This document shows, piece after piece, positions 8,918-38,346 of a stretch of DNA of 64,000 nucleotides. The stretch lies in the IMG/VR virus record IMGVR_UViG_3300021425_000028; one strand, given 5' to 3'. Numbering within the stretch: the first letter of the stretch is position 1; each line of letters starts with the position of its first letter. Source of the DNA: an uncultured virus (IMG/VR IMGVR_UViG_3300021425_000028). Taxonomy: Duplodnaviria > Heunggongvirae > Uroviricota > Caudoviricetes. The notes below the pieces were generated by a model. The model made no database searches and had not been told where the DNA came from. It saw nothing but the letters and a program-made list of their open reading frames with translations. The translations under genes were made by a program, and so were the position numbers.

Positions 8918-9272
8918 AAAAGAGGTAGTAGTTACAAGAGAAATGGTTAAGGCAATTGTGAAAGACGCAATCACTAAGATTGCTTTATGGTCAATACTTG
9001 CGGTTGCTGCAACTGTTTTATCTGGCGCTGTATGGGTTGGGGTGATAAGTTCCGATGTAGAAGACTTAAAGGACTACAAAGAAAAAACAGCGCCTACCAT
9101 TAATGAAAATGCGGCTACGCTTAGAGAAATTGCTATTGATTTAAAATACATAAGAAAGCAAGTAGAGGTTAATGGGTACTCTTTTCAGAAGATAGCCAAT
9201 GATTTTGACTTATACAAAGATGCTCAATCAAAAGAAATTCAGGAGTTCTATAGGAAGAACCCTAATCTGTAA
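8910..9272 (+). CDS. Single-TM coiled-coil protein, lysis-associated candidate
   Basis: One TM segment plus coiled coil, upstream of the lysin candidate. Confidence 0.45.
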   Translation: MSEKEVVVTREMVKAIVKDAITKIALWSILAVAATVLSGAVWVGVISSDVEDLKDYKEKTAPTINENAATLREIAIDLKYIRKQVEVNGYSFQKIANDFDLYKDAQSKEIQEFYRKNPNL

Positions 9273-9280
9273 AAAAAATC

Positions 9281-9883
9281 ATGGAAACAATCGCATTATT
9301 ATTGAAAGTCGTAGAGTTTTTAAAAAGTAAATTCTTTTTATACCTATCGATCATTGCTCTCATCCTGATTATCATTTTCTTTTGGAGATCCAATCAAAAA
9401 ATGAAAGCTGACTTTGAGATGGTTTCAAACTCTACTCAGAACTATTTAGAGGATAAGAAGAATGAGTTGATGTTAAAGGTTACGGACAGAGATATGAAGC
9501 TTCATCTCCAGGAAGAAAAGATCGATAGTTTATTGACTGCTGTTGACGTAAAGCCAAAGCAAGTTATCCGGTACAAGTACATTAACTTAGATCGCACAAT
9601 ACACGATACTTTGTTCCTACATGAATTAATCGAGTTAGGAGACTATAAGCAGAAATTTATATTTCAAGAGCCTTGTTTTACAGCCGAAGTGGACTTATCA
9701 GGCGCTCACCCAAGTATAAAGGCAGATATTATCACTAGCCTATATGACATTAATTACAAAGAAAGACGTAATTTGTGGGGCGTTAAATGGTTTCCGAAAT
9801 GGGGTAAAACTCAGATTAGACAAACCTTAATAAGTGACTGTGGAGACACGATTAGAGAAAACTACCTAATTACAACAGAATGA
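9281..9883 (+). CDS. Putative i-spanin-like protein
   Basis: N-terminal TM, coiled coil and periplasmic domain, in the lysis cluster. Confidence 0.45.
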   Translation: METIALLLKVVEFLKSKFFLYLSIIALILIIIFFWRSNQKMKADFEMVSNSTQNYLEDKKNELMLKVTDRDMKLHLQEEKIDSLLTAVDVKPKQVIRYKYINLDRTIHDTLFLHELIELGDYKQKFIFQEPCFTAEVDLSGAHPSIKADIITSLYDINYKERRNLWGVKWFPKWGKTQIRQTLISDCGDTIRENYLITTE

Positions 9884-10188
9884 CTAACGAAATATACTTT
9901 ACAATGACTCTAGGTGTATCTCTAATAGAGCTAGGACACCTTAAATACAAGAAATACCCAACGGTTAGAGCGTGGTTTATTGAGCGATGGGATAATCTTT
10001 CCTTTTCATTAGTTGGAGGTGTAGCGTTATGTTATATTTTCCCAGAGGTATCTACTCTTGGAATTGTGAAGAGTGTGGTTGATATTCATGGCTATCCGTC
10101 TTTGGGTGGTATTATTATTGGATTGACATCTACGCCATTAATCAATTTCATTAAGTCTAAGACTAAAGGTAAGTTGAAAAACTTATGA
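9880..10188 (+). CDS. Putative holin
   Basis: 102 aa, 2-3 TM segments, basic C-terminus, directly before the lysin candidate. Confidence 0.55.
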   Translation: MTNEIYFTMTLGVSLIELGHLKYKKYPTVRAWFIERWDNLSFSLVGGVALCYIFPEVSTLGIVKSVVDIHGYPSLGGIIIGLTSTPLINFIKSKTKGKLKNL

Positions 10189-10682
10189 GAACCTACCTCG
10201 ACAGACCGGATAAAGAAAATGACCACGTTATTTGCGAGGTTATCAGAAACAAGTACACTGATGACACCACAATAGGTCGTTGGTTTTTTCCAGATAAGGA
10301 AGACTATTGCTATACCTTAGAGGACACTGTTCGTGCTGAAGGGATAAAAGTTAATGGCAATACTGCATTAGCTGCAGGGTACTACAAAATGTCTACGCGC
10401 TACTCTCCAATGCTTAAAAGGGATGTTGCGGTAATCTATACCGAAGACGATAAGATAACGGCTAAGAATGGAGGTATTAGCTTCAAATATGCTTTAGCTC
10501 ATGCTGGGGCAACCCACAAAAACACTGCCGGTTGCATTTTGGTAAGTGATGAGTATGATAACGATGAGCGAATTGCGCCTACTAGAGATCAAGAGCAAGA
10601 GATTAAGGATAGGATTAAGAAGTGGGAGTCAGAAGGAAAAGAGGTTTGGCTGCATATTATCAATAAGCCTCAAGCTGGGTAG
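10185..10682 (+). CDS. DUF5675-family putative endolysin (transpeptidase-like fold)
   Basis: T-I-G, C-Y-T-L-E-D, G-x-T-A and H-A-G-x-T-x-x-N-T-x-G-C-I-L-V motifs. Confidence 0.7.
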   Translation: MRTYLDRPDKENDHVICEVIRNKYTDDTTIGRWFFPDKEDYCYTLEDTVRAEGIKVNGNTALAAGYYKMSTRYSPMLKRDVAVIYTEDDKITAKNGGISFKYALAHAGATHKNTAGCILVSDEYDNDERIAPTRDQEQEIKDRIKKWESEGKEVWLHIINKPQAG

Positions 10683-10683
10683 T

Positions 10684-11097
10684 CTACTTTTTACCTCCGT
10701 GTATCTTCGATAATTGGTATTTCTTTGAAAGTTCTGGATTGCGTTCTAGCTCCAGGTTGTGATTGTTACAGCATGGCGCAAAGTATCGTGTGTCGATCAG
10801 TAGTGGAATATTATTGTTTCTAGCCCACTCATCAGCAAATCCCTTACGCCCTTTTCTGTGTTCTATGGAATTAGCCGGGGCATTACATCCAGCAATAAAA
10901 CACCTCTGATTTTCATCCCTAGATAGAAACTCTTTTCTGATCTTGGAATATTGAGCCTCAAGCTTCGCTCTTTTTTTTGAGTAGAAGTTAATCTTAGATG
11001 ATTTCTTTTTAATAGCCGTTCTTTTGAGTGGCTTCTTAGGTTTATGTCTCCAGCACCTATTGCTATTTGCTTTTATTCCACATATTTCACAATTCAT
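10684..11097 (-). CDS. HNH-like nuclease
   Basis: C-x4-C, E-H-R-K-G-R and C-x-x-H-N motifs. Confidence 0.55.
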   Translation of the reverse strand: MNCEICGIKANSNRCWRHKPKKPLKRTAIKKKSSKINFYSKKRAKLEAQYSKIRKEFLSRDENQRCFIAGCNAPANSIEHRKGRKGFADEWARNNNIPLLIDTRYFAPCCNNHNLELERNPELSKKYQLSKIHGGKK

Positions 11098-11153
11098 AAT
11101 TTTAAATCGGCAAGATTGCTCTTTTTAAATGTTATGTACTAAATTGACCATAA

Positions 11154-11564
11154 TTAAATATTTTCTTTACCCACGCTCTCAAAATAGAAAGTTCCGCTAA
11201 ATGGCTTTGTTGGTGTAATTCCAAAGTATGAAGCCACTTTATTAAGGTATTCCTTTTTCCGTTTAGATTTCTCGGTTCTCGGATTCTTTGGCTTGTCTAA
11301 TCTTTCATGTAGACCTCCTAAAAACCACGTTCTAAATGTTTCCAAATCTAACGAACCCTTGTAGTGGTTAATTATTTTTTGCACAGGCACTAGGTTTTCA
11401 TCACAATGAGCGTTTGGAAACATAGATGTTCCATCAAACCAATTGCGAATAAGTGGCTTGATATGTTCAACTTGCCAATCATCTTCAAGCGGTGTTCCTG
11501 AATATGCGCAAAGCCCGTTGAATTTTTGTTTGATTTCTAGTCTTTTCTTTTTACTGATATACAT
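11154..11564 (-). CDS. HNH endonuclease
   Basis: CAYSG..WQVEHIKP..NLVP..INHYK. Confidence 0.75.
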   Translation of the reverse strand: MYISKKKRLEIKQKFNGLCAYSGTPLEDDWQVEHIKPLIRNWFDGTSMFPNAHCDENLVPVQKIINHYKGSLDLETFRTWFLGGLHERLDKPKNPRTEKSKRKKEYLNKVASYFGITPTKPFSGTFYFESVGKENI

Positions 11565-11670
11565 ATCGGGTACTTTAAACTCATGTAATTATCAATTGCA
11601 TCAATCGCTTGATCTATTCCAACAGTAAATTGAGCTTTATATCCTTTTGTAATGATTCTTCTTTTCCCAT
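11536..11670 (-). pseudogene. Internally deleted VRR-NUC gene remnant
   Basis: MGKEESLQ joined out of frame to KGYKAQFTVGIDQAIDAIDNYM; both ends resemble the intact gene at 20392-20772. Confidence 0.55.
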
Positions 11671-11676
11671 AATTCA

Positions 11677-11925
11677 CTAAAGTAACATATTCACCTTTAC
11701 CGTTTCCATCTTTTTAAGAGATCGCCTCGAAAGTCTAAACGATGTGCCAGGCAACCGCTTTACTATCTGATCGCGATAAACTTCTTTTACAAGCACTTTT
11801 GCAGTAAATAAATTGTCGTTGCTCCAGATATATGTGCCATCTGAACAAATGAACAAGTTTCTACCGTGCCATTTTGCAATTGCAACGCCTGTTTTGTTGA
11901 ATCCAATGTATTGATTTTCAGTCAT
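11677..11925 (-). CDS. Hypothetical protein
   Basis: ORF co-oriented with its neighbours. Confidence 0.5.
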   Translation of the reverse strand: MTENQYIGFNKTGVAIAKWHGRNLFICSDGTYIWSNDNLFTAKVLVKEVYRDQIVKRLPGTSFRLSRRSLKKMETVKVNMLL

Positions 11926-11964
11926 AATTTGAACAAATTGAATATAGCCAATTGTTGTGCGTAA

Positions 11965-12063
11965 TTAAACCCACTCCGTTGAACCAACTATGCAAAAATC
12001 ATCTCCTACAACCGTGTCATACAATGAAAACTCCTTTTCTTCAATCGGGTCTTCCCCTTCAAC
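11965..12063 (-). pseudogene. 3' part of phage gene split by the IS1595 element
   Basis: Removing the element and one TSD fuses ...NNDY to VEGEDPIEEKEFSLYDTVVGDDFCIVGSTEWV* in frame. Confidence 0.85.
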
Positions 12064-12439
12064 GGGAACTATATACAACTTGGGACAAAACCTACTACTT
12101 TTTTTTTGTAGTGTGGATTTCGGTTAAAAATTCATTTCAAGAAGGTCGGAACTTCTTACGCTTTATACACGGAGCGAAATCACTCAAAATGAGATAACCT
12201 ATTCAATGAACGACTGAGGGTAAAGTTGCTTGCGTATTGCTTCCACCGCGAACGCCACTTTGTACGGACTGTTACCGACCCTCTTTACTCTTCTCTTTAG
12301 TCTCGCTTACTGAGGCTTTTAAAACCCCGTCTAGCGTGCCGTCAATAATGAGCTTGTCCTCGTACTTCTCAGCACGAGGCTTCTTTTCATCTTTCTTCTT
12401 TTCTGACATATCCCAAAGATAATAAAGTCATATGCTTAT

Positions 12440-12832
12440 TTACTCTACGGACTCAAATTCTACATAAATAATATCACTAAAACCTACGGTTTTAATGTCT
12501 ACCCATAAATGATCTTTTTCCAGTCTTTTTATCTCCCAAATTTCTACAGCCCCATAATCGTAATCTAGTCGCATTGATTCTTTTCCGTCTTCAAAATCCC
12601 AATCACCACCATATATAGTGCCATTGGCAATTCCCGCAAACTCATCATACGAGAACATAATCTCCATGTCTGGATAAATGACTGACCCATTAAATATTGC
12701 TTTTTCAGCACGCCACTCTTGAGCCAGTCTATCTCTCTTTGAGGTTAATTGTATCCCTTCATTATCCTCGTATTTACTGCACGAAGTAAGAATAAGAGCG
12801 CAAGAAATAAGGAGAAAAATTAGTTTTTTCAT
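12440..12832 (-). CDS. Lipocalin-like lipoprotein (IS passenger)
   Basis: Lipobox LTSC; W-x-x-E-K and G-x-W-x-F beta-barrel motifs. Confidence 0.65.
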   Translation of the reverse strand: MKKLIFLLISCALILTSCSKYEDNEGIQLTSKRDRLAQEWRAEKAIFNGSVIYPDMEIMFSYDEFAGIANGTIYGGDWDFEDGKESMRLDYDYGAVEIWEIKRLEKDHLWVDIKTVGFSDIIYVEFESVE

Positions 12833-12920
12833 GGTAATAAATTTTAGTGTTGTTTAATTCTAAAGCAAGTATAACGAATCCGTTATAGTCTCAGAGCTTA
12901 TAAAGAACAATTTTTAGCAG

Positions 12921-13145
12921 ATGGATCGTAAAGACCAATTGCTTCGCATAGGAAAACGCGTAAAATTTATTCGTGAAACAAAAGGGCTTTCTCAGACTCA
13001 GCTTGCTAACAACATAGGCAAGGATCAGCCATCAATTAATCGACTTGAAAAAGGCAATGTAAACCCTAGCTATCTTTATATACTTGAAGTATGTGAAGGG
13101 CTTGAGATAACCATTGCTGAGTTTTTTAATGAAACCTTGGAATAA
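12921..13145 (+). CDS. XRE-family HTH regulator (IS passenger)
   Basis: R-x-x-K-G-L-S-Q-x-Q-L-A..I-N-R-L-E-K-G-x-x-N-P-S. Confidence 0.9.
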   Translation: MDRKDQLLRIGKRVKFIRETKGLSQTQLANNIGKDQPSINRLEKGNVNPSYLYILEVCEGLEITIAEFFNETLE

Positions 13146-13206
13146 CAATTTCACCAAGGTTTTGCTGTAGTAATATTTACATTATACTTCTTAGAAACAC
13201 ATAGTC

Positions 13207-13374
13207 ATGAACAATATAGAATATACTTCCGAATCTTTAGTAGGCTACGCCCCTGAACATTTAACAGACAAGATAAATGAGATGGCGGCACAGGGATGGG
13301 AGCCGATTTCACATGCCTATTATACGCTCAATAACAGCGTACATGGAACAATCTTATTTAAACGGATGTCTTAG
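13207..13374 (+). CDS. Small DUF4177-like protein (not in ORF track)
   Basis: 55 aa with INEMAAQGWE..ILFKR. Confidence 0.55.
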   Translation: MNNIEYTSESLVGYAPEHLTDKINEMAAQGWEPISHAYYTLNNSVHGTILFKRMS

Positions 13375-13757
13375 TCGATTCTTAAAAAAGATTTTTCACT
13401 TCTCTTACAGTTGAGAGAGTTAATAATCATTGACGCCTCATGGTAGCTATATCTTGATATTTCGGCAAGCATCTTATCAGATACTTCATCTATTTCTTTG
13501 GTTGTTATTATTTTATCGCACATAATGATTTTATTAAATTACCCATGTGGGTAAAAATACTAATATTTTTAGTAACCTATGTTACTTAGAGATAATATTC
13601 TAAATTAAGAAATCAAATGCTATTTTAGTTGCGTGAAGCTCGGAGACTACATAGACGATCTTGCTAACCTCTTCTTTCCTAATGAGGGGCTTAATAATTG
13701 GCAAAGAGCCTTTTTCGTTGCAGTGATTGCATTATTGTTTTGGTTCTTATTATTTAG

Positions 13758-14501
13758 ATGAAGAAGATTATTCATCATATATATTGCGATGAAAGTAGGC
13801 AGTCTAAAGATCGATATATGATACTAGGAGGAATAATTATTCCGAATGGTAACGTAAACGTGTTTATAGAGACAATGCAGCTTTACAGGGTGAAGCACAA
13901 CATGAGATCAGAATTAAAATGGTCTAAAGTAAAGCATCAAAAACTGGATGAATACAAAGCTTTTGTTGATTATTTTTTCGCATTAGTCAATTCGGATAAA
14001 ATACATTTTAAGTCTGTGATTTTTGACAATCACACAGTAGACCATAAAAAATATAGTGGAGGAGATAAGGAAAAAGGATTTTACAAGTTTTACTATCAAC
14101 TTTTATTCAATTGTTTTGGCCGACAGTATTATAGCTCCGAAACAAATGAAAAGTTCATAGTTCACCCCGACCAAAGACAATCAAGTTATGGTTTAGATGA
14201 GCTTAAAACAGTTCTAAATAATGGAATGAGAAAAAAATTTAAAACATCAGACTCGCCATTTATTAGCATTGAACCAGTAAATTCTAAAAATTCAGAAATA
14301 GTTCAAATTAACGATATAATAATCGGTGCGATTGGTTTTGTAAAAAACGGATACCATCTTTTATCAGCCTCTAATAAAGGAAAAGTTGAATTATCAAAAT
14401 ACATTGAATCTAAGGCTGGACTAATGGATTTAGGATCTAATACAAGATATGGAATGAATCGCTTTTCTGTTTGGAATTTCAACCTTCAAGCAAAAAAATA
14501 A
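13758..14501 (+). CDS. DUF3800-family protein (RNase H-like fold)
   Basis: I-Y-C-D-E-S, E-L-K-W-S-K and S-x-x-V-Q-I-N-D-I-I-I-G-A-I motifs. Confidence 0.8.
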   Translation: MKKIIHHIYCDESRQSKDRYMILGGIIIPNGNVNVFIETMQLYRVKHNMRSELKWSKVKHQKLDEYKAFVDYFFALVNSDKIHFKSVIFDNHTVDHKKYSGGDKEKGFYKFYYQLLFNCFGRQYYSSETNEKFIVHPDQRQSSYGLDELKTVLNNGMRKKFKTSDSPFISIEPVNSKNSEIVQINDIIIGAIGFVKNGYHLLSASNKGKVELSKYIESKAGLMDLGSNTRYGMNRFSVWNFNLQAKK

Positions 14502-14587
14502 ATCGCCTAACATCCTATGCTAAAAAGCTACCAAGTTAAGGTTTCCCACATTTAAACGTGGGTTTTCAGATTGTCATGACGATTTAT
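14498..14587 (-). ncRNA. Putative DUF3800-associated small structured RNA
   Basis: TACATTTG promoter at 14594-14601 (-), long closing stem with G-U pairs, internal hairpins, T tail. Confidence 0.55.
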
Positions 14588-14712
14588 CTAAATCAAATGT
14601 AATATTAGAATTAAATCTAATTGTCACACAAAAGTCATATGACTAACTATCAGTTGTCAAAATCAAAGATAAAGATATTAGTTTACTAATAATATTAGCA
14701 TCGCATTTCTTT

Positions 14713-15648
14713 TTAAGAAATCAAATCAGAATATCTCAATCTACTCTCACTCTGAGCTAAGAACCTTTGAAACTTCTCTTCATTCCCGTTATGTCGGTTG
14801 TTATACCGTGCTGCAAACTCATTCAAGTAAGCCTCAATATGCTTATCGCTTACTTGGTGATATATTCCATAGATACCACGCTTTAGGGTAGCCCAAAAGC
14901 TCTCTATTGTGTTGGAGTGAGCATCTCCAACAACGTAAACCTGTGCCGAGTGGTTCATTGCCTCGTGATCGAATTTATTACTCAACTTGTGGTAATACTT
15001 GCTTTCGTCAGTGTAAATCTTTGAACCGTTTGGAACGTGAGTTTTAATAAACTCTTCCATACCTTTCTGAGTAGCGTTAGGAAGATACTTCAAAACAACG
15101 TTTCCGCTTCTCTCAACAATTCCTATTACTGTTTTCTTAGGTTGGTAAGGAGTACCATCATTTTTAAGCTCTCTACCCTCAAGAGAACGTCTTTTAGAAA
15201 AGTGCTTGTTCTTTTCTTTGCCTCCTACGTATGATTCATCCACTTCAACAGGGTTATTCTCTCCCAACATTGCAGGAGACTTTTCCTTTAGCATTTCACG
15301 AACTCTGTGAAGAATGAACCATGCTGTTTTCTGAGTTACGTCTAATTGATCTGCAAGCTGAACAGAGCTAACGCCTTTCTTGCTTGTAGTGCAAAGGAAA
15401 ATCGCAGCGAACCAAGTTCTAAGCTTAATGTTTGAGTTTTCAAAGATTGTCTTAGTCTTAACGTTGAACTTCTTGTAGCACTCGTTATTAGAACACTTAT
15501 AACCTCTTGTCGTCTTGTAAGGCTTCTTACTGCTTTCGCAATGAGGGCAAACAGGCTCACCAGCCCAACGAATATTCTCGTAGTACTCGATGCAAGTCTC
15601 TTCGTCTTTGAAGAAGTCTAAAAGCTGTGTTATTGATTTGAAGTTCAT
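14713..15648 (-). CDS. IS1595-family DDE transposase
   Basis: Zn ribbon CPHC..C..C, HTH (TQKTAWFILHRVR), VEVDESYVGG, IYTDE, HSNTIESFW..KRG, YLNEF..RYN. Confidence 0.95.
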   Translation of the reverse strand: MNFKSITQLLDFFKDEETCIEYYENIRWAGEPVCPHCESSKKPYKTTRGYKCSNNECYKKFNVKTKTIFENSNIKLRTWFAAIFLCTTSKKGVSSVQLADQLDVTQKTAWFILHRVREMLKEKSPAMLGENNPVEVDESYVGGKEKNKHFSKRRSLEGRELKNDGTPYQPKKTVIGIVERSGNVVLKYLPNATQKGMEEFIKTHVPNGSKIYTDESKYYHKLSNKFDHEAMNHSAQVYVVGDAHSNTIESFWATLKRGIYGIYHQVSDKHIEAYLNEFAARYNNRHNGNEEKFQRFLAQSESRLRYSDLIS

Positions 15649-15729
15649 AGTTCCTTTTCTTTTGATACATCAAATATACACTTTGTCCCATATACTACCT
15701 AATTTTTATTGTAGAAACTTAAAATATCT

Positions 15730-16203
15730 TTGAGTATGGATGCAGAAAAACTTCAAGAGTTAGCTAAAAATATCTTATATCCAGATCACGGGCTTTCAAA
15801 CACAATGATTATTCATACTTATTGCGAATCTCAGATTGACGACATAATAAATAAAAGCTGCCAAAGACCAGCTCTTATTCTAAAATGGACGTATAGATAT
15901 AAGCTTGAGTTTATTTACTCAACAGGACTAATAACAGAGCCTTTATATTATAATCTTACTCAGCTAGGAGCAATTAGAAATAAATACGCTCACAACACAA
16001 ACTTTGATATAGGATCATATCAAAATCTAACATTTAAAAATCGCGAAGGTCAATCTATTAATGTAAGACATCTTTTCGCAATGCTTACAGTTGCTGTTGA
16101 AAAGCATTTGATAATGAGTAGTCTAGAGCAAATACTAGCCTACACTCTTTACGGTTTAATGTTCGGTTATAAACCGACAGCCCAAGGAGACGCGCCATTC
16201 TAA
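15730..16203 (+). CDS. HEPN-like (MtlR-type) protein (IS passenger)
   Basis: Helical; H-x3-E near N-terminus; R-N-K-Y-A-H (Rx4H) motif. Confidence 0.6.
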   Translation: MSMDAEKLQELAKNILYPDHGLSNTMIIHTYCESQIDDIINKSCQRPALILKWTYRYKLEFIYSTGLITEPLYYNLTQLGAIRNKYAHNTNFDIGSYQNLTFKNREGQSINVRHLFAMLTVAVEKHLIMSSLEQILAYTLYGLMFGYKPTAQGDAPF

Positions 16204-16232
16204 AATAACGCAATCTCCTTTGCTGTACCCTG

Positions 16233-16304
16233 TAGCGATGGTGAGAATCGAACTCACATAAACAGCCTTATGAGAGCTGCTTGAAAACCAATATTCGCAT
16301 CGCT
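16233..16304 (-). tRNA. tRNA with CAU anticodon (Met or Ile2), inside the transposon
   Basis: Acceptor AGCGATG/CATCGCT, anticodon arm CAGCT-CTCATAA-GGCTG, T-arm GTGAG-TTCGATT-CTCAC; weak D-arm. Confidence 0.8.
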
Positions 16305-16346
16305 ATATGTATGTTTAACACTTTTATTAAGTAGCAAGTAATTGAA

Positions 16347-16979
16347 ATGCAAGACATCAACCACACCCCCCTCTCTGTAAAGGTTCTTGTAGAACTTTTG
16401 AATAAAGGAAAAGGAAACCCTGAGCCTATTCTTTTAAACGAGTTTTTCCTAAAAGAAAAGGTATCTGTACCCGTTGCTAAACAAGTGTTATTAGACTTAA
16501 TAAAGAATGAGTATGTAACATTCAAAGATTGGTCGATAAAGGATGCTATAGATCAAATCAATCGAAGGCTATCAGACGATCTATTAGGTATTGACGAAGC
16601 AGATAAAGAAAAAGGAAGGTTATACACTCGATTTTCGGCCGACATGACTACACCCCCCAATATTTATCCATTACCATTTAGGATAACTGTAAAAGGAATT
16701 GCTTTCATAGTTAAGTTTCAAGAAACAAAGAACAACACTGACTTAATTAACAAACAAAGACGTTACATAGTAATACTTCCCATTCTCACATTAGTAGCCA
16801 CCTTGTCAATACCACCCTTAATGGAATACCTATCAAGAGACCAATCGCACAAGAAATCGGAAATGTTACCAACCAATACTTCCACCCATCAACCCAACCA
16901 TTATCAAACAAGTAATTCCAAAATCTGTCCCACGGATTCGTCCAATAACGATACACTACCCGATTCGCCTTCTCTATAA
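16347..16979 (+). CDS. Membrane-anchored hypothetical protein (IS passenger)
   Basis: wHTH-like I-T-x-K-G motif followed by a single TM segment. Confidence 0.5.
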   Translation: MQDINHTPLSVKVLVELLNKGKGNPEPILLNEFFLKEKVSVPVAKQVLLDLIKNEYVTFKDWSIKDAIDQINRRLSDDLLGIDEADKEKGRLYTRFSADMTTPPNIYPLPFRITVKGIAFIVKFQETKNNTDLINKQRRYIVILPILTLVATLSIPPLMEYLSRDQSHKKSEMLPTNTSTHQPNHYQTSNSKICPTDSSNNDTLPDSPSL

Positions 16980-17048
16980 TCTCAACACAACTCATCTACC
17001 CCCCCTTCTTTTCGACTGAGAACTTGTCCCAAGTTGTATATAGTTCCC

Positions 17049-17227
17049 CCTTCAACGTAATCGTTATTTTTAAGCATTATGGTTTTAGCTTCTTCATCCG
17101 TTATTTCTTCAACTTCTTCAATGTCTTGGAAGCCCTCAAATTCAGCTTCGTAAGATTGTAATAGATGAAGATGATTTTTTGCCTGTGCAAATTCTGTTCT
17201 GTCATCAAATTTTAGTCTGTAAATCAT
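17049..17227 (-). pseudogene. 5' part of phage gene split by the IS1595 element
   Basis: MIYRLKFDDRT..NNDYVEG reads into the TIR; continues at 12055 after excision. Confidence 0.85.
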
Positions 17228-17237
17228 AATTAACTGC

Positions 17238-17366
17238 GCACAACACAAAATAAAAAACAGTGGGTGTTGTGCGGCTTTTTATCCACTGTGCCTTGTAGTT
17301 AATTTAGTCCAGTTAGATAGGTCAAGACTTCCAAATCCAACCGATTTTTTATTCAAACCGTTAGTT
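17238..17366 (+). repeat. attC-like site
   Basis: GCACAAC..AATAAAAAACAGTGGG / CCAACCGATTTTTTATT..GTTAGTT; 129 nt. Confidence 0.65.
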
Positions 17367-17380
17367 GCAATAAAAATTAC

Positions 17381-17617
17381 CTACAACCGAACCGATTTTA
17401 TGGTTTTTATCCTTTCAATACATCTAGGGCAAGTTATACCCCCTCTTTCAACAGTTTTTACCTCGAACTCACATCCGCTTGCACCAAAGCCGAAGTATTC
17501 CCCTTGACAAAAAGTTGCGGAATCTCCACAAACTGTTTCAACTAAGCACCAAACTTGATTCTCTTTATCCCTTATTTCTCCATCATCAGATGAAAGTATT
17601 TTAACTAAATTGTTCAT
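17381..17617 (-). CDS. Cys-rich hypothetical protein (cassette gene)
   Basis: C-P-R-C motif; lies between attC-like sites. Confidence 0.6.
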   Translation of the reverse strand: MNNLVKILSSDDGEIRDKENQVWCLVETVCGDSATFCQGEYFGFGASGCEFEVKTVERGGITCPRCIERIKTIKSVRL

Positions 17618-17685
17618 GATCGTAATTTTTACATTTCATTCATTCGTTCCTCATTCATCAGCTAACACAGCCTATGGCATATAGG

Positions 17686-18015
17686 CTACCATTTCGTAAC
17701 CTTAGTGCCGTCTACTGTAAATCTCATTGCCTCACCTGTAATTTTTAATCTACTATCCCATTCGCCAATAAAATCATCTAAGGGCTTCAAAATATGGCTT
17801 GATTCATCTAAGTTGTCACCATCTTTCAAGGTAAAGAAGTAAGTTCCCATACCCATAACAAATTCATTTAGCTCATTGTGTTCTTGTAATATTTTACGAG
17901 CCATTTTTTCAACAACTTCTGAAGCTGTTTTTTCTGCTTTTTCGTAACAATCCGTCACAGTGCCTAACATTTTGTATAGTGCATGGCTGGTGTTATTTGA
18001 ATCTTCGTTTTTCAT
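17686..18015 (-). CDS. Hypothetical protein (cassette gene; start inside the attC-like site)
   Basis: Probable start MKNEDSNN at 18015. Confidence 0.55.
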   Translation of the reverse strand: MKNEDSNNTSHALYKMLGTVTDCYEKAEKTASEVVEKMARKILQEHNELNEFVMGMGTYFFTLKDGDNLDESSHILKPLDDFIGEWDSRLKITGEAMRFTVDGTKVTKW

Positions 18016-18090
18016 ATCTAGGTTTTTAAGTGTTTGAATCTTTGTGGCTTTTATCGGGCAGACACTACACCATACAATAGCCTTTAGCAT
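17962..18090 (+). repeat. attC-like site
   Basis: GCCTAAC..TTGTATAGTGCATGGCTG / CAGACACTACACCATACAA..(T)TTAGCAT; 129 nt. Confidence 0.65.
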
Positions 18091-18095
18091 TAATA

Positions 18096-18404
18096 CTACT
18101 TACCTAGTAGTTTAGTATGCACCAATTTTGGAAGAACAACCTCTTTCCTATCATCAGTATATGCCTCAAATGCCATTCGCTTAGTCTCTACTTGCCGGCA
18201 ATAGTCTTTTATTGCTTCATCTATCGTGCTACCATTTCCGTGTGAACCAACTAAGCAACCACCTTCCATCACTTCACCGCCTTCAAAACTTACGTAGTAT
18301 TGGCTTGTTCTAGTGTTTTTAGGTCGCTCATTCACTACCAATTCAAAGCCTATTTCTTGTTCTAAATCCAAAATTTCTTTGGTTTCAATTAAGTTAAATT
18401 TCAT
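18096..18404 (-). CDS. Hypothetical protein (cassette gene)
   Basis: ORF between attC-like sites. Confidence 0.6.
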   Translation of the reverse strand: MKFNLIETKEILDLEQEIGFELVVNERPKNTRTSQYYVSFEGGEVMEGGCLVGSHGNGSTIDEAIKDYCRQVETKRMAFEAYTDDRKEVVLPKLVHTKLLGK

Positions 18405-18440
18405 ATTTCAAATTTTTAGTTATTAAATTGTAGTACATAA

Positions 18441-18567
18441 TGCTAACAAAATGTATCATTCAGGCTTGTGCTGTCTAAGACTTACTTTGCTACTCGGTTG
18501 TGTTGGTAGTTGTTCAGAATAGACGCTATACCTCACGCAGCCCGAAATGATACAAAGGTCGTTATAC
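18441..18567 (+). repeat. attC-like site
   Basis: TGCTAAC..TGTATCATTCAGGCTTG / CAGCCCGAAATGATACA..GTTATAC; 127 nt. Confidence 0.7.
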
Positions 18568-18837
18568 TCCATTAAACATAGTGTACTTTGTTAGTTTATA
18601 AGTTACCTTATTAAGCCATTGCCATCTTGCAGGTGTCGTAAAATGTCTTTGATACCATTTTATATCGCCCATAACTTTACCGTTTACAATAAAATGCAGT
18701 TTAACTAAAGGCTTCAATACAAGCCATTTTACTGTGCTGTACCAAAACGAAAGCATAACAACGTGTAAAGAAAATTTAGGTTTCTGTTCTAACCCTAAAC
18801 GTTCAATCATATCTTCTGCTGTAATTTTATCTTCCAT
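18562..18837 (-). CDS. Hypothetical protein (cassette gene; start inside the attC-like site)
   Basis: N-terminus ..FSLHVVMLS is encoded by the attC-like arm. Confidence 0.55.
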   Translation of the reverse strand: MEDKITAEDMIERLGLEQKPKFSLHVVMLSFWYSTVKWLVLKPLVKLHFIVNGKVMGDIKWYQRHFTTPARWQWLNKVTYKLTKYTMFNGV

Positions 18838-18884
18838 AATTTTTGTATTTTAATCCTAAACTTTCCTTACACAATGCGTTGGGC
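18753..18884 (+). repeat. attC-like site
   Basis: GCATAAC..GTGTAAAGAAAATTTAGG / CCTAAACTTTCCTTACAC..GTTGGGC; 132 nt. Confidence 0.7.
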
Positions 18885-19080
18885 AGAATTGCCTTCGGCA
18901 CAAACTCTACTCATTTAATCAATTATCCTTAACCATTTAATTTGACCATGTTGATATTCAACCTCGTCATGCACGGCATCAGCCAATTGATCTTTGGTTG
19001 TAGCTCCGTCTTCAATATAAGCATCGCCATCTACTATTCTATCGTCTTTGAGCCGCGCTCTGAAATGTATTTTCATTAGA

Positions 19081-19878
19081 TTAAATTTCTTCCATTTCAC
19101 GCTCCATAAAATAGGCCTCAATAGCCAACTTTCTACATTCAGAAACCAATATATCAGGAAGCTTTGTCTTGGGGTTGTCCACGAATATTGAATCAAACGT
19201 TAAGCTTTCAATAGCATCTTTATTCAATCGATAAAGAGTTCCAGAAATGGCTCGTTGAACTTGAAGTGACTTAAGGTTTTCCAATACGATTGGAATAGCA
19301 GTTTGAATATGACCCCAATAATCATCTTGGGTCAATTTAATCTTTCCCGTTTCTAGCGCAAGTTCATATGCTGGTGAGTATCCTGCAAATAGATCTACCC
19401 CATTTCCATTCTTGAATTTACTCCAGGATTTATAGAACGACTCTAGCACTCTTTCTTTTTCTTCCATTGATAATTCTTTTGGTGGTTTTTCATTGCTTCT
19501 GATCCGTTTAGAAACAGTGCTACGATCATTTTGAACGTATAGTTTCAATGCTCTAATTAGCTTTGCGCCAGAAAAGTGTTTTACTTCATCGTCAGAGTAT
19601 TTCGCCCAATTTTTCACAGCCTCTTCTACCTCCATTATGTGAAGGAATTTGTATTGCTCTGTGACGGCATCTTTTAGTGCTTTTGCGCCAGCTTCTAATA
19701 CCGGCCTAGAAGCACTTCTTTGCCCTATAATGTCGCAAACATCTAGGCATAACTCATATAATCGAGTATTTAACTCAGATTCATCCATTTTACTAGCCCA
19801 TTGTTTATGGACTATAGCTAATGATAATGCTTCTGGAAGAGAGTTTGGTTCGGTGATTTTGGATAATTTATTTTCCAT
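19081..19878 (-). CDS. Replication-associated protein (helicase-loader position)
   Basis: Directly downstream of the initiator-like gene; position only. Confidence 0.4.
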   Translation of the reverse strand: MENKLSKITEPNSLPEALSLAIVHKQWASKMDESELNTRLYELCLDVCDIIGQRSASRPVLEAGAKALKDAVTEQYKFLHIMEVEEAVKNWAKYSDDEVKHFSGAKLIRALKLYVQNDRSTVSKRIRSNEKPPKELSMEEKERVLESFYKSWSKFKNGNGVDLFAGYSPAYELALETGKIKLTQDDYWGHIQTAIPIVLENLKSLQVQRAISGTLYRLNKDAIESLTFDSIFVDNPKTKLPDILVSECRKLAIEAYFMEREMEEI

Positions 19879-19879
19879 G

Positions 19880-20386
19880 TTATTGTCGCATTGAGTTTCG
19901 TAGATCAGAAATGTTTACCATCTCATTGTCAGATCCATTCTGTTTGTTGAATCGCTTTTCATTTTTAAGGAATGTTCCTAATCTCCTTCCAATATTAAAA
20001 GAAGTTTGCTTCTCAAATCTCATTTGACGATCATTTTCACCATGTTCAGTCCAATACTCATAGAAATTACGAAGTAGTTCAGAGTCATATTGATCTACAT
20101 ATGGTCTAAGTGAGTCGTAGAATTTAGACTTTGCTTTTTCTCGTCTTTCTATAAACGACTGTTTTATAGCAACTCCAGTCTCTTCTAACTTCTTGGTCAC
20201 TTTATTTGAGTTTGTTTGAAGCTGTTTGAACACCAATTGAATAACTGGGTCATTCAGCTGAGAGTCATCATTGTTTAATGAATAGTAAATCTCTTTGAGC
20301 AATTTCCCGGCCTGCTCATTAGTCAAAGCCTTAACTACATCTTCATCAGATTGTGATAAGGCAAAGTATGTTGTATTCTTAGACAT
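19880..20386 (-). CDS. Putative replication initiator (DUF6291-like N-terminus)
   Basis: LTNEQAGKLLK..Y and NFYEYWTE..MRFEKQTSF motifs. Confidence 0.6.
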   Translation of the reverse strand: MSKNTTYFALSQSDEDVVKALTNEQAGKLLKEIYYSLNNDDSQLNDPVIQLVFKQLQTNSNKVTKKLEETGVAIKQSFIERREKAKSKFYDSLRPYVDQYDSELLRNFYEYWTEHGENDRQMRFEKQTSFNIGRRLGTFLKNEKRFNKQNGSDNEMVNISDLRNSMRQ

Positions 20387-20391
20387 CGTAG

Positions 20392-20772
20392 TTATTTCAA
20401 ATAAAAATCAATTATTCTTTTTGCCTCATCAAAGCCTACTGCAAAACATGCTTTATACCCTCGTTCGTGAAGTAATTTATGAACTTTCTCTTGTTGCTCT
20501 AAATGTTCATTTTTTCGTAGCAAACCATCTTTTTTATAAATGACTGTACCCTGTGGCTTAAGCTCAAGAAATAATCCACTGCAAATTCCATTTCCTCGAT
20601 GCATTATCAATAAATCAGGCCAACCTTTTGATGGATTCTGATTACGTTTAAGATTTGTTGCTTGCCCTATGGTTAATTTTATGCCTGAAGGAGACACCAT
20701 AAATAATACCGAAGGATATTGAAGTCGTAAATAATCACAGATTTGATTTTGAAGTTTTTGTTCTGGTTTCAT
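20392..20772 (-). CDS. VRR-NUC nuclease (Holliday junction resolvase-like)
   Basis: E-x-x-L-Q, G-W-P-D-L, L-F-L-E-L-K and G-Y-K-A motifs; start taken at MKPEQK. Confidence 0.8.
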   Translation of the reverse strand: MKPEQKLQNQICDYLRLQYPSVLFMVSPSGIKLTIGQATNLKRNQNPSKGWPDLLIMHRGNGICSGLFLELKPQGTVIYKKDGLLRKNEHLEQQEKVHKLLHERGYKACFAVGFDEAKRIIDFYLK

Positions 20773-20915
20773 AAAATTAGAGCAGGAAACACACTCATCG
20801 CCTTTTGGTGTGGGTGCGAGGAATGCGACTGCCACGCTTTAAAATGTTTGACAAACCTAGTAATTATTTTCTGATGTTTTAATTGTATATTGATAATATT
20901 ATTTAATTTTGCAAT

Positions 20916-21413
20916 ATGATTAAACAAAAATGTAGTATTTGCGGAAAGGTTGGACATAAAAAATCCTTTCATTATAAAAGTAAAAAATGTCCTATATGTA
21001 ATATTGTAAAGCCAATTGAGGACTTTTACAAAGGAAAAAAATACTATTACAGCAATTGTAAAAAGTGCAACAATGCAATGTCTCGTGATTATTATACCAA
21101 AACCGTTGAAGGTAGAATGCGGAAAATATTTAATGCCGCTAAATCCAGAAGTTTGAAAGACAACATTCCGTTTGATATTACAATTGAGTTTGTTTTTGAT
21201 TTGTTCAGAAAGCAAGAAGCTAAATGTTTTTATTCTGGTATTGAAATGACTTCTAAAATAGGTCGAACAGGAATAAGCATAGACAAGAAAACACCTAATA
21301 TTGGATATACAAAGGATAATACAGTTCTGACTACTTGGCTTGTCAATAATATGAAACGAGATTTGACCGAGCAACAGTTTAAAGAAATGTGTAAACTTAT
21401 TGCAAATAAATAA
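20916..21413 (+). CDS. Zn-finger HNH-like homing endonuclease
   Basis: CxxC pairs; C-F-Y-S-G..S-I-D..G-Y-T-K-D-N..N-N-M-K; inverted relative to neighbours; TAATTTTG at 20904-20911. Confidence 0.75.
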   Translation: MIKQKCSICGKVGHKKSFHYKSKKCPICNIVKPIEDFYKGKKYYYSNCKKCNNAMSRDYYTKTVEGRMRKIFNAAKSRSLKDNIPFDITIEFVFDLFRKQEAKCFYSGIEMTSKIGRTGISIDKKTPNIGYTKDNTVLTTWLVNNMKRDLTEQQFKEMCKLIANK

Positions 21414-23011: not shown

Positions 23012-23176
23012 GATGTTCGTTTTAATTTGTTCTAGTTTGTATTTCACTTCTCACGGTATTACCGTTGTATCTAGCGCCATAACCACACGGTCTTTTGGCT
23101 CTCTTGAATTGGATGTTTTGACCCCTTATCTCAGCTTCCCATTTTTGTAGTTCGTCTTTGGTCATGGCGCTATAAT

Positions 23177-24115
23177 TTAACGTAAGTTGTAGCTGTAGTA
23201 AAGCGGAAGATCAAAGTCTATTACTCCATGAGCATTGTCACTTGATTCTCGGTAACCATTTACATCAGTATATGAAGCTATCTTACCTTCTTTGATGTCA
23301 TTGATAACCTTTGCAGCTCTAGAAATATAATACTTGAATGCGTCATAGATCATCTCTCGATCCTTTTCTTGGAATCGATATAGCTGCGCATTGTAAGGAG
23401 CAACTTTCTCAACTACCAACCAATAGTAGTCATCTACCTTGTCTATATACCCTGACTGCTCAACTCCTTCTATTTGCATAGTAGCTTGCATAGGGTAATC
23501 TAGGTTTGCGGCCTTTCTAAAGAATGCTTGTGGAGATGCGTCAAGGTCTGTCTTGATGTCCACAATTACCTTCTGTCTGTTTACCGCTAAGTCAGGTCTT
23601 GTTTTGCAAAGCAGTCCTGTATCAGGATCTTGCCATACAAATGACTTTTGGTAGTCAGTCTTCTCCAATATCGCAGTGATCGTCTTGTCAGCCTTACATG
23701 AAGCAATCATTTCTTGAATTACTTCCCAGCTTTCAACTCCAACATCATCGATCAGGTATTTAGCATCATTCTCTTTTTCAAAAGCATCCTTTGCATCCTT
23801 ATAAGCTTTTGATGCCTTAACTGATTTCAGCTCTGGCTTCTCTTTTAAAGCATCCTCTGACCACTTCTCTGTCTGTCTGACGCCAATCATTGAGTCAATA
23901 TCGTTCGTGCCAGCAATCGCGTCTAATAAGGCCACCTCAAAAGCATTCCCAAAATCAAAATGTGACTTACGTTCTTGCTCTTTCGTTAAGTAGTATGCTA
24001 AATGTCTACTTGACTTCTTAGCTTCTTTAATCCCAGTTGAGGAGAGAATAGCTTTATTCTCATGGTAGTCCTCAATGGAAAGATCATCGTATATTCCTAT
24101 TTCTAAGTTTTTCAT
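23177..24115 (-). CDS. PD-(D/E)XK exonuclease, RecE/ExoVIII-like (DUF3799)
   Basis: YH..LSSTGIK, FGNAFE, CKTRPD..IVDIKT, Y..QA. Confidence 0.8.
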   Translation of the reverse strand: MKNLEIGIYDDLSIEDYHENKAILSSTGIKEAKKSSRHLAYYLTKEQERKSHFDFGNAFEVALLDAIAGTNDIDSMIGVRQTEKWSEDALKEKPELKSVKASKAYKDAKDAFEKENDAKYLIDDVGVESWEVIQEMIASCKADKTITAILEKTDYQKSFVWQDPDTGLLCKTRPDLAVNRQKVIVDIKTDLDASPQAFFRKAANLDYPMQATMQIEGVEQSGYIDKVDDYYWLVVEKVAPYNAQLYRFQEKDREMIYDAFKYYISRAAKVINDIKEGKIASYTDVNGYRESSDNAHGVIDFDLPLYYSYNLR

Positions 24116-28807: not shown

Positions 28808-31800
28808 TCATTCAAAGTTTAAAAGCATACTATCAGCTAGCGCGTTAACTCTTACGCGGTAGATTATATGTTCGGCCTGTTGCGATTCTGGATAGTGTAC
28901 GATTGTGCTAAGGTCTTTTCTGAGCGATTGGATTAATCGTTTTTGAGTTTGGATTAGTTCTTTTTGCTCTTTGTAGATTTCGGTTCTGTTTGTTGGAGGA
29001 TTAAGCATTAAGAATATTAGAACTATAACTACCACTGAGAAGGATAAAATTAAGCTAAATATTGATTTTTCGAGTTTCATAGTTTCTAGTTGTTTTGGTT
29101 TTGTTGTATTAACCACTCGTCTATCTCTTCAAGTAGACATTCCCCATCACATTCTACGCCATCCCAAATCGCTGTTACAGACATAACATCCTCTGTATTA
29201 TTTGAGGCTTGACACTTAGATAGAATATCATAAGCTGCTGTGAGCAGTATTTTAGCTCTTTCTTGTTGTTGTTTTTTTTTATGGTCATTTGTTTTGGTTT
29301 TACTGTTAAAGTTTGATTAGTCGGTCAGATAAATGGTCGCGGTATTCTTGTAGGCTGTCTCTTATCTCTTTTTTACTCTCATAAAAATATCGAAGTGTAT
29401 CTACACTGGTTGTAATCCAGAACGATATTAACCAATCTCGTTTAATTTCATATCGTCTTTTAGCAGATCTCAATGTTATGTTTTGCCATATAATTGATTC
29501 ATCGAGCTTAGTAATCCTCTCTATAATCTGTTCTTTTTCGTTTTTGATTTTCATAGTCGTTTGTTTTTGTCTCCACTCGGTGAGAGATTGAGACTAAGTT
29601 ATTGATTTATTGAGGTTTAAATTTACTGCTTTTTTAAAGCCACATCTAAAAACAAATACCACTATTAGTTTTCGATGTGTCTTTTGTGGGAAGAAAACAA
29701 AAAGCCATCGCGCTTAGATGCATAAAGACGGATTATGCAAACACCCACTCATCTGCTGCGCAAACGTGTAACAAGGGTCTCTCATTATAATCCTTCTCAA
29801 TAAAAAATCCCTCCCCGTTATGTGGATCGTCAAGATATTTTGCAATCCCAAGGAATATGCCGTCTCGATATATTTCGTATTCCTTGCCTTCAATGAGAAG
29901 GTCTTGTCGAAGCCCTTCTTCCCCTTTTCTAAGGATTAATTGTAAGCCGTCTTCTTTGTCTTGTTTCATGATCTAATTGTTTAAATTAAGCACATTTATT
30001 TAAGTTACTCTCTCCAATGGTTATTACTTTTCTTTCTGAAAACACCATCCATATCTTCATTAAAAATTCTCGAATCAATTGACGATATGTATTCTAATAA
30101 CTGTAGAAATCCACTAATACTTTCTTGATCGCTTCTACCAGGCCCTTTGTCTGGATTTATGCCGACTTCGATGCAATTATGGTGATCTACATGGAAAGAA
30201 TAAACCGTTTGACCACCTTCTTTTCCCACTGCTTTTCGGTAGATGCTTCCGTGGCATTCAGCGTTGATTTGCCTCATGACCATTTTGAAAATCCGCATTG
30301 GATATTCTTCTGAATCAGATTGATCTAAGTTTTGATTGTATTTCCAATTAGCTATGTCTGAATGGTAAACGTTTCTGAGGTATTCTTCGTAAGGTAAATC
30401 TATGCTATTTACACCATGCGTCATACGAATCATTTTTTCACGTTCTTCTGATAGAAGGTATTCGCCAAAGGTTATAAGATCGCGCTTTGTGATTACCCCA
30501 CCTGATTCAATTAATTCCGCATAATCAATTGCTGATTTTAAGTTATTGAAATAGCCTTTTAATATGAACGCTTCGACTTTATACCTACGATTGACATCTG
30601 GTAACTCTTCATCACCCCACGCAACCTCATATACCGCGAAGTGTTGAGCGTTTAAGACTTCTTTAGTTAAGATGTGTTTGTGATTACCGACTACGGCTTC
30701 AAGATGATCTTTGTTTTCAGACCTGAAATCATCAATGGTCTTGTTCTTTTGAACTAACATAATAATTGAATTTATTTACCGCACCATCAATCTATGTGTG
30801 TCCAGTGGTGCGTTTACTGAACAACACAAAATTAATATTAATTTTCTTGATAGTACATCCTTTTCAGGTTTTCTTTCAGCTTGTAGAGTTTATCCCAATC
30901 GCTAGGAAGTCGTTTCTGTTGATCCGTGCTTACTTGATTTTAACTGATAGTGCATCGTTCTTCTCCATGAACTCATACATTCTGTTGATTGTTCTTGCTT
31001 CTTTTGGTGACCATCGCTTAGTGCCAGCCTTTTTAGCTTCGTAGGCTCTCCAGAAAGTGCCTAGATAGCTGTATAGCCATCGCTTGTGAAATATTACTTC
31101 TAGCGCTTCGGCTTTTTCGGTTGTTGTCATTATTAAGTCCATTCTCGGTAAGTGTTAAGTGAGGTTGATGTAAATTTCATTCCGTTTCCATTGTATCCTA
31201 TCGCAGCATGGTAGCCTTGAAGAAAACAATTCATCTCTAGTTCAGTGTCGAAGCTAAACTGCTCCGCTGATTCTGTCTGTATAGATTCGTCATCTAATAT
31301 CTCCTGGGCATCCTCAAAGGATGTGGCGTTTTCGAAGTATCCTTCATCTTCTGAAGATGGGACAATGATTAGTTGGAATTTTTTCATGATTATTTAGTTA
31401 CTTGAATTGTGGCTGTCACCTTAGTTACTCCTTCATTTCCTGAAGCCATTTCTCTTTGAAATTGCCCTGATTTTATATCATCTACCACGCTTTGCATATT
31501 CTTTTCAAAGAACTCGTCTGTGCAATAGGTAATTATGACCATTCTTACTTGTCTCATGATTACCTCTTAGCGTTTTCGTTATACCACTCGATGAACTCTA
31601 CGCATCTAAGCACAATACAATTCAAGTCATTGTCTAGAAATTCGGAAAACATATTATCCATGTAGAAAATATCTTCTGCTTTCTGTCTTCTCTCGTCCTC
31701 ATAGTCAAATGATCCTAGTATGTTTGCGCACTTTTTAACTAAAGGCATCAAGGCATCCCAGCTATCCTCAAAAGGATTTGTAAAGTTGTATTGATTTACC

Positions 31801-38274: not shown

Positions 38275-38346
38275 GGTGTAAGGAGGGTACTGACCCCTCT
38301 TCTTCTGATTCACAGTCAGATACATCACCTTAATGCTTCAAACACC
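38275..38346 (-). tRNA. tRNA-His(GUG), atypical
   Basis: G-1:C73, anticodon arm TCTGA-CTGTGAA-TCAGA; T-loop GTCAGTA; two U-U pairs in the acceptor stem. Confidence 0.8.

Follow-up and report, generated by a model that had tools for sequence, protein, structure and literature searches.

A probable integron-like cassette array with reversed genes in a marine phage of Flavobacteria-type hosts

Positions 11,926 to 18,884 of the uncultured virus record IMGVR_UViG_3300021425_000028 hold a row of small genes separated by long imperfect palindromes, which raises the question of whether these genes are mobile cassettes and, if so, what moves them. An earlier note, made by a model from the letters of the DNA, had described an integron-like array here, and we followed this up over the whole stretch of 64,000 nt (hereafter the window). 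The longest contig recorded for the cluster of one window protein has 68,831 bases, which leaves ~4.8 kb outside the window. The window encodes a large terminase, a portal, virion proteins and GroEL/GroES at a G+C content of 37%, and its terminase shares ~25% identity with terminases of Flavobacterium, Cellulophaga, Tenacibaculum and Maribacter phages. The sole public sequencing run that contains the stretch is a seawater metagenome, probably the source of the window, which is that of a marine phage of Flavobacteria-type hosts. Our answer, which we consider probable, is that window positions 11954-18884 form an array of five cassettes that belongs to an integron-like system of gene exchange in Flavobacteriia phages, with one cassette split by an unrelated IS1595-family transposon. 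Clusters of attC sites in phages have already been published (Qi et al. 2023; PMC9892861), and the window array is a non-canonical variant of these. The system is non-classical by enzyme, gene orientation and box consensus and has features typical of site-specific exchange of cassettes. Unrelated phages share the site family: it is present in two IMG/VR contigs (L049 and L050) and in the Polaribacter phages P12002L and P12002S, to which the window is compared throughout.

On the minus strand, which is the sense strand of the genes, the sites share a general plan: an xxxxAAC box, a spacer of 3-6 nt, an arm that frequently resembles TGTRTA, a variable central part, the return arm, a spacer of 2-4 nt and a GTTxxxx box. 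All five sites were found where the earlier note had placed them, and on the plus strand they have the xxxxAAC starts and GTT-type ends that it described. Site E (18753..18884, 132 nt) runs from GCCCAAC and GCAT through a 19-bp stem with three G.T/G.U pairs to CGTT and GTTATGC; its interior matches L049 and P12002L, and it contains an ATG at 18837 together with 27 codons that continue into the next gene. Site D (18441..18567, 127 nt) is a long irregular hairpin composed of GTATAAC, GACCTT, the arm TGTATCATT, the arm AATGATACA, TTTT and GTTAGCA. Site C (17962..18090, 129 nt) has a degenerate AAC box (TGCTAAA), a GTT box (GTTAGGC), a weak fold and an ATG at 18016, and its ends resemble the published site P12002L_attC1 (TGCTAAC-GGCTA ... 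GTTAGGC), with the boxes and the start of the spacer in common. Site B (17660..17689) has collapsed to ~30 nt, with a degenerate AAC box (GCCTATA) and a 7-8-bp hairpin followed by GTTAGCT. Site A (17235..17369, ~130 nt) consists of CAACTAAC, GGTTTG, arms of A and T only and GTTGTGCG, plus a local 9-10-bp hairpin, and its 5' end, AACGGTTTG-ATAAAAAATCG, recurs at a P12002L junction. The row closes with a short terminal site (11926..11963), where CGCACAAC partners the GTTGTGCG box of site A and GTTCAAA comes next, right ahead of the following gene. All of these sites are given on the minus strand. An AAC or GTT triplet is present in 8 of the 10 window boxes and the full RYYYAAC/GTTRRRY consensus 7-mer in 2. 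We confirmed the degeneracy of two plus-strand GTT cores (TATAGGC at 17680-17686, TTTAGCA at 18083-18089) and the start of two genes within sites, namely E and C. The long sites could not be reliably aligned to one another. With two dead cores, weak folds at A and C and a cassette hit by a transposon, the window array is a modest and partly decayed member of its family.

The central claim of the earlier note, that the cores are chained so that each complements the core across the gene and not its partner in the same palindrome, was borne out. We compared the seven variable positions of 10-mers at the boxes of 13 cassettes (five from the window, seven from L049 and one from L050), with boxes picked by eye. 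The GTT box ahead of a gene matched the reverse-complemented AAC box that follows that gene at a mean of 4.9/7 positions, compared with 2.6/7 for boxes of different cassettes and 2.5/7 for the two boxes of one palindrome, and the sum for own pairs was reached by 0 of 100,000 permutations. For the window alone the own pairs scored 4, 7, 4, 4 and 6 of 7, a sum reached by one permutation in 120, which is the true order. One L049 coordinate was off by one base in this test, and the true box of another cassette matches at 10/10. Since the boxes had been picked by eye, the test was repeated with fixed windows around annotated gene ends, and the observed chaining was reached by 0/20,000 permutations for P12002L and 0/20,000 for P12002S, with p=0.014 for L049. 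The flanking repeats around P12002L gp53 to gp56 reach 13-31 nt. Adjacent junctions in the window aligned locally no better than non-adjacent ones, and when the adjacent-junction links were set against random windows 2/5 were nominally unusual, one of them not the match given in the earlier note.

Comparison of other phages bears on where the exchange would occur. In the L049 contig small genes stand in a row, with sites of three sizes: long (~130-137 nt), medium (62 nt) and collapsed (~30 nt). P12002L has at least 10 junctions between minus-strand early genes, read by eye, with more in P12002S. Moreover, Cellulophaga phage phi12:1 has one site upstream of a methyltransferase, with chained GTTATGC/GCATAAC boxes. 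P12002L contains close counterparts of the 5' end of site A, the ends of site C and the whole of site E. The siblings P12002L and P12002S share blocks that are 99% identical and differ in their early-gene rows, where two methyltransferase cassettes are reordered, three genes are replaced by four and there is a three-gene insertion. Six of the seven array breakpoints between them fall at AAC|G(T): identity spans the upstream gene, its xxxxAAC box and a G or GT and then stops, or it resumes at AAC. The seventh lies in TGTAT, 8-12 nt further on. As the breakpoints are at the AAC box by the 3' end of the upstream gene, the mobile unit would comprise the site interior, the gene and the AAC box, so that a site travels with the gene downstream of it, unlike the canonical order in which an open reading frame (ORF) precedes its own attC and crossover is at the far (R') end of that site. 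The orientation stated in the earlier note, with crossover at the plus-strand GTT and genes antisense to canonical cassettes, is thereby upheld. Its proposal that relatives be compared at G|TT is answered in part, by the six sibling breakpoints, but no relative spanning the window array was found.

These breakpoints also bear on whether the rows might be Xer/dif-type (pdif-like) modules, with short alternating sites at which XerC/D cross over in a central 6-8-bp overlap such as TGTGTA. Inverted boxes do flank each gene, older comparisons place boundaries at both of them, many sites have a conserved TGTRTA, in which one breakpoint lies, and the host enzyme described below scores about equally on Xer and IntI models. 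However, six of the seven breakpoints are at the outer AAC and not at the centre, the boxes that would serve as binding arms vary freely between cassettes, and site lengths range from 27 to 140 nt. We therefore regard this explanation as highly improbable.

The cassette genes, all on the minus strand, show the same modularity. Gene g91 (18562..18837) has a conserved 64-residue body that begins at an ATG (18754-18756) inside the GTTATGC box; among 41 homologues this body is joined to at least four different, unrelated N-terminal extensions, and in L050 it lies between a perfect 10-nt inverted pair. Conversely, the 27-28-residue peptide encoded by site E is found, at 77-100% identity, fused to seven unrelated C-terminal bodies, and in both sets of homologues the junction of head and body is always at GTT|ATG. 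Gene g102 (18096..18404) is an orphan for which no phage homologue was found; it is flanked by GTTAGCATTA and TAATGCTAAA, and its boxes match at 7/7. Gene g109 (17686..18016) would encode 134 aa if read from an ATG at 18090. The product of g78 (17381..17617) is a Cys-rich protein of 78 aa (phrog_15583) that shares 50.6% identity with a hypothetical protein encoded by Aeromonas phage 59.1, whose host belongs to another bacterial phylum. The gene there is tightly packed with no such site beside it and is two genes downstream of a putative DNA invertase. We also observed that an HNH endonuclease gene (11154-11564, minus strand) matches P12002L 40062-40502 at 28% identity. It lies within or beside the cassette row in both phages and in P12002L is itself flanked by sites.

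Could the palindromes and the short matches between them simply be chance features of AT-rich intergenic DNA? When 130-nt frames on the minus strand of the whole window were scanned with RNA parameters, site E ranked 3 and site D ranked 6, with arm-shuffle z-scores of -6.95 and -6.14, and the window holds 7 loci at or below -26 kcal/mol compared with 1-3 in five block shuffles. Sites D and E are thus among the strongest long-range hairpins in the window; A and C are at chance level as hairpins and were accepted as members only because their ends resemble P12002L sites. The unremarkable z-scores of whole sites, adjacent-junction alignment scores no higher than non-adjacent ones and the 33 independent 130-nt loci that a DNA-parameter arm scan of the window places at an arm-pairing energy of -12 kcal/mol or lower, comparable to that of site D, are all what chance would give. 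It would not give position-specific chaining, homologous sites in five other phage records, sibling-phage breakpoints at the box or covariation in the stems, and we consider the likelihood of chance very small. The covariation is seen in four medium sites from four phages, which form a common 23-pair hairpin that includes both boxes and in which 3/23 pairs are compensatory, and in the stem of site E, where 2/18 pairs are compensatory between the window and P12002L and one of these alters a codon of the embedded frame. Of the sense-strand G.U pairs in the medium sites, 4-5 persist in every sequence or almost every one. With RNA parameters, the sense strand folds better than the antisense strand in 6/8 long or medium sites (-26.5 against -14.1 for E). 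Covariation and sense-strand folding together fit a structure in the sense strand, as DNA or as RNA. Outside the array, a further long-range pairing at 23056-23185 has 14 contiguous pairs, an arm-shuffle z of -6.2 and rank 2 in the window; it spans the boundary of the genes at 23022-23165 and 23177-24115, the latter an exonuclease gene.

If the structure acts as RNA, the pairing of 5' and 3' flanks would close each early mRNA, with hairpins that process, terminate or stabilise the transcript, and modules would be shuffled by AACG/TGTAT microhomology whilst selection keeps intact units. The better folding of the sense strand speaks for this, as do the 4-5 G.U pairs kept in all four medium sites, the start codons within structures, the gene-spanning repeats of 22-31 nt, which are larger than an integron box needs, and the one breakpoint that lies within TGTAT and not at AAC. 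On the other hand, G.T pairs would equally allow the sense strand to fold as DNA, and six of the seven breakpoints fall in the same 4-5 nt despite longer shared motifs nearby. Moreover, the boxes vary from cassette to cassette yet always begin with GTT and end with AAC, a chromosomal array of the same build stands directly behind a tyrosine recombinase, and a P12002L site is reported to have recombined at that box in the published assay (PMC9892861). We judge a role in RNA alone to be unlikely, although hairpin function at the RNA level is still a live rival and may coexist with recombination.

Which enzyme, then, might act on the integron-like array? No integrase is encoded in the window, as had been claimed: PF00589 (Phage_integrase) was absent from the 89 window ORFs scanned, from the L049 and L050 records and from the complete P12002L genome. 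Only the HNH nuclease and g91 (its head, in P12002L) were common to the window and the related phage loci when all window proteins were compared by tblastn, and no common phage-borne recombinase candidate therefore emerged. The cut-off of the IntI model TIGR02249 was passed in 0/401 sampled Flavobacteriaceae genomes and 0/5 named relatives, with no genome known to carry IntI among the controls, such that the sensitivity of this search is unproven. In four of five genomes reached via transposase loci, the best TIGR02249 match is one frame of 326-413 codons that aligns in two stretches and leaves positions ~180-239 unmatched. In a Polaribacter genome (G003) this frame encodes a 386-aa recombinase. 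Its scores are 210.6 bits on TIGR02249 (cut-off 265), where profile positions 178-239 find no match, 219.9 on the archaeal XerA/integron-integrase model (cut-off 220) and ~184 on XerC and XerD. Directly downstream of this gene, and co-oriented with it, are cassettes with ~130-nt sites (read by eye); the stretch contains 9 perfect 10/10 pairs compared with 1.58 in shuffles, and 7 of these are around consecutive cassettes. Full-length homologues of the Polaribacter recombinase (E<=1e-60) are present in 231/401 Flavobacteriaceae genomes. Many of them are within 50-2,000 bases of the end of a contig, which is what assemblies broken by repetitive arrays would show. The earlier suggestion of a host tyrosine recombinase is thus plausible, given an enzyme of this type beside a chained array in Polaribacter, but the candidate is not a canonical integron integrase.

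This distinction matters for the possibility that the window holds ordinary attC sites moved by a canonical IntI of the host, that is, a classical cluster of attC sites lacking an integrase (CALIN). Qi et al. screened 10,705 phage genomes and found 3 integrons, one In0 and 17 CALINs; for P12002L they report two predicted attC sites in "divergent directions" and recombination of P12002L_attC2 with attI1 by IntI1 at G|TT (PMC9892861). The G|TT box of P12002L_attC2 is on the strand antisense to the neighbouring genes, and natural breakpoints use the same box. The published sequence of this site is present twice in P12002L (29175-29243 and 37201-37270), the second copy exactly at a P12002L/P12002S breakpoint. 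The AAC/GTT triplets, the chaining and the lengths of 127-132 nt would suit an attC array, as would the prediction of two P12002L sites and the recombination of one of them by IntI1. Set against this are the IntI searches above, with no known IntI carrier among their controls, the fit of only 2/10 window boxes to the full consensus, and the position of every gene antisense to the canonical direction. In addition, published attC tools recover only 2 P12002L sites, compared with at least 10 read by eye. A classical CALIN served by a canonical enzyme is therefore quite improbable.

Taken together, the integron-like reading would have the following mechanism. The imperfect palindrome would fold, probably as single-stranded DNA of the sense strand, and a tyrosine recombinase would exchange strands at the conserved AAC, which is G|TT on the opposite strand. 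The interior and the gene would then move as one cassette by way of a circular form, within which the two boxes could pair. On the minus strand the proposed unit comprises the interior (spacer, arm ... arm, spacer), GTTxxxx, the small gene and the complementary xxxxAAC. As the gene is antisense to the classical direction, such a cassette must bring its own expression signals inside the ~130-nt site, and sites E and C would supply the start codon and first codons as well. The recombinase is probably not encoded by the phage, and the best candidate would be a host Xer/IntI-like enzyme without the integron-integrase insertion. As the inner arms differ between host and phage sites, we infer, and do not observe, the tie between an enzyme of the Polaribacter type and the phage sites.

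More broadly, we put forward, as a possibility that we rate somewhat below even, that virulent marine Flavobacteriia phages keep active cassette platforms plugged into a widespread host analogue of the integron that the papers searched do not describe. This analogue would combine an Xer-like recombinase that lacks the IntI-specific segment with reversed cassettes that carry their own promoter and sometimes a start codon and ~27 codons, and accessory genes (methyltransferases, HNH nucleases and small orphans) would flow between host arrays and lytic phages during infection. The present definition of an integron rests on IntI and on attC models with mostly proteobacterial training data. Were the arrays active, that definition would widen to enzymes without the IntI insertion, lytic marine phages would gain a site-specific route to acquire and reshuffle genes such as anti-restriction methyltransferases, and there would be a concrete mechanism for phage mosaicism at gene boundaries. 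Both P12002L and P12002S are isolates with a culturable Polaribacter host, and the idea is therefore directly testable.

Several observations weigh against the integron-like reading. The boxes of the 13-cassette test were selected by eye, and with fixed windows the chaining of the four intact window genes gives only p=0.084. No perfect 10/10 GTT..AAC pair is present in the window array, nor are such pairs enriched in the window, and the half-site motif AAC-N3-6-TGTRTA is not enriched there either (7 hits compared with 7.25 expected). Two such motifs lie 60 nt apart on the minus strand at 44527-44600, inside or beside the ORF at 44478-44807 and outside the array, possibly by chance. Folding of whole sites does not exceed that of shuffles (z of about +1.3 to -2.8 for the five sites); with DNA parameters the long sites do no better than shuffles (z of +1.3 to -1.4), the hairpins of A (z -2.0) and C (z -1.2) are at chance level, and the conserved G.U pairs of the sense strand are equally compatible with an RNA structure. 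The gene-spanning inverted repeats of P12002L, at 22-31 nt, exceed what an integron R-box needs, and in older comparisons some boundaries lie at the GTT box or within sites, which one crossover position leaves unexplained. In the published assay no junction was verified for P12002L_attC1, which of the published sites is most like site C (PMC9892861). On the host side, the sites share the architecture of the phage sites and differ from them in the inner arms. Lastly, no relative spanning the window array was found by megablast or by the IMG/VR and metagenome scans, and the single run with the array, as contigs, showed one form and no joints at sites; no RNA run containing the stretch was listed. 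Megablast of window positions 9000-21000 against phages gave no match, and three IMG/VR scans with flanking proteins recovered no relative of the window phage. A 265-aa neighbour protein has one relative, at 75%, on a 1.6-kb contig, and the one metagenome scan returned a 1.4-kb contig, located upstream of the array. No paper that describes this site family or a variant of it in Flavobacteriia came up in full-text literature searches.

The first cassette requires separate treatment, as the earlier note had paired 11954 with 17237 and missed that the 5.3 kb of this first 'cassette' contains an IS1595-family transposon of 4,985 bp (12064..17048), which carries passenger genes, was inserted into the array and does not belong to the cassette system. 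Its terminal inverted repeats (12064-12088 and 17024-17048) are 25 bp long and perfect, and an 8-bp target duplication, CCTTCAAC, is present at 12056-12063 and 17049-17056. The transposase (14713..15648, minus strand) has 311 aa and matches the Pfam families DDE_Tnp_IS1595 (PF12762, 9.4e-40) and Zn_ribbon_IS1595 (PF12760, 3.4e-10). In silico removal of the element and one copy of the duplication regains a single open minus-strand frame of 88 codons, g88, whose N-terminal part is at 17049..17228 and whose C-terminal part, with the stop codon, is at 11965..12063. With the transposon lying between its ends, the link from 11954 to 17237 therefore joins the two ends of a cassette of ~340 nt, the boxes of which match at 6/7. 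Relatives of the transposase, at 57-68% identity, occur in marine Flavobacteriaceae and Cytophagales genomes, and of 46 homologous transposase loci 25 have window-like end sequences and 20 have both ends. The element belongs to the IS1595 family: like other insertion sequences of that family it has the DDE_Tnp_IS1595 and zinc-ribbon domains, terminal inverted repeats, an 8-bp duplication and ends that recur in Bacteroidota, and it differs in its phage location, in ~4 kb of passenger genes and in the presence of a third end-like copy that stands alone. Its passenger genes encode an Xre-type helix-turn-helix protein (12921-13145), a DUF3800 protein (13758-14501) and two unknowns, and the N-terminus of a 130-aa passenger ORF (12440-12832) weakly matches several PHROG families. 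Bacteroidetes-type -7 motifs precede the transposase and the ORF at 15730. The solo copy of the left end (45190-45214, 3 mismatches in 25 nt) has similarity over ~35 nt (45178-45214), is upstream of the gene at 45324-46145 and may be a remnant or a decoy. A tRNA-like sequence within the transposon (16233-16304, minus strand) scores 34.1 bits on the Rfam tRNA model (cut-off 29), with no call by ARAGORN.

Elsewhere in the window, Rfam matched tRNAs only and nothing attC-like. A tRNA cluster at 38275-38552 (minus strand) is read by ARAGORN as Gln and Pro and by Rfam as Gln and a third tRNA at 38275-38345, not Pro. Scans for sigma-70-type promoters and terminators, and for the Bacteroidetes -7 motif TANNTTTG, both gave chance-level results in the window, with none in the array spacers. 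Positions 41327-43463 encode a GroEL of 533 aa and a GroES-like protein in which Cpn10 is matched by two stretches.

How does the window array compare with known systems of gene exchange? The PeSL mobile regulatory cassettes of T4-type phages (Arbiol et al. 2010) reportedly recombine homologously between repeated promoter stem-loops. They resemble the present arrays in that stem-loops with expression signals delimit small accessory genes within the plastic regions of lytic phage genomes and flag where shuffling takes place, and they differ in that they are not known to have gene-specific chained boxes. The pdif modules of Acinetobacter plasmids have 28-bp sites with conserved binding arms and crossover by XerC/D in a 6-bp centre. 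They share with the phage arrays rows of gene modules between inverted sites and an Xer-like enzyme as the likely actor, whereas here the boxes vary with each cassette, the palindromes are folded and up to 140 nt long, and the breakpoints are non-central. The attC sites of sedentary chromosomal integrons are ~120-130 nt long. With classical integrons the arrays have in common imperfect AAC/GTT palindromes, chaining, compact single-gene cassettes, crossover at the triplet and a host array headed by a tyrosine recombinase. In contrast to those integrons, the genes here are antisense, the site is upstream of its gene and may contain the start codon, the fit to the consensus is poor, the inner arms are conserved in sequence (TGTRTA), and the candidate enzyme, whose gene points the same way as its cassettes, shows no match to the segment specific to IntI. 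Closest of all are the published phage CALINs, which also carry AAC/GTT sites on a phage with no integrase nearby and include that of P12002L, which carries the same site family as the window; compared with the two divergent sites predicted in that report (PMC9892861), the present analysis finds in P12002L at least 10 sites by eye in one orientation, with gene-specific chaining, extended repeats and cassette swaps against P12002S.

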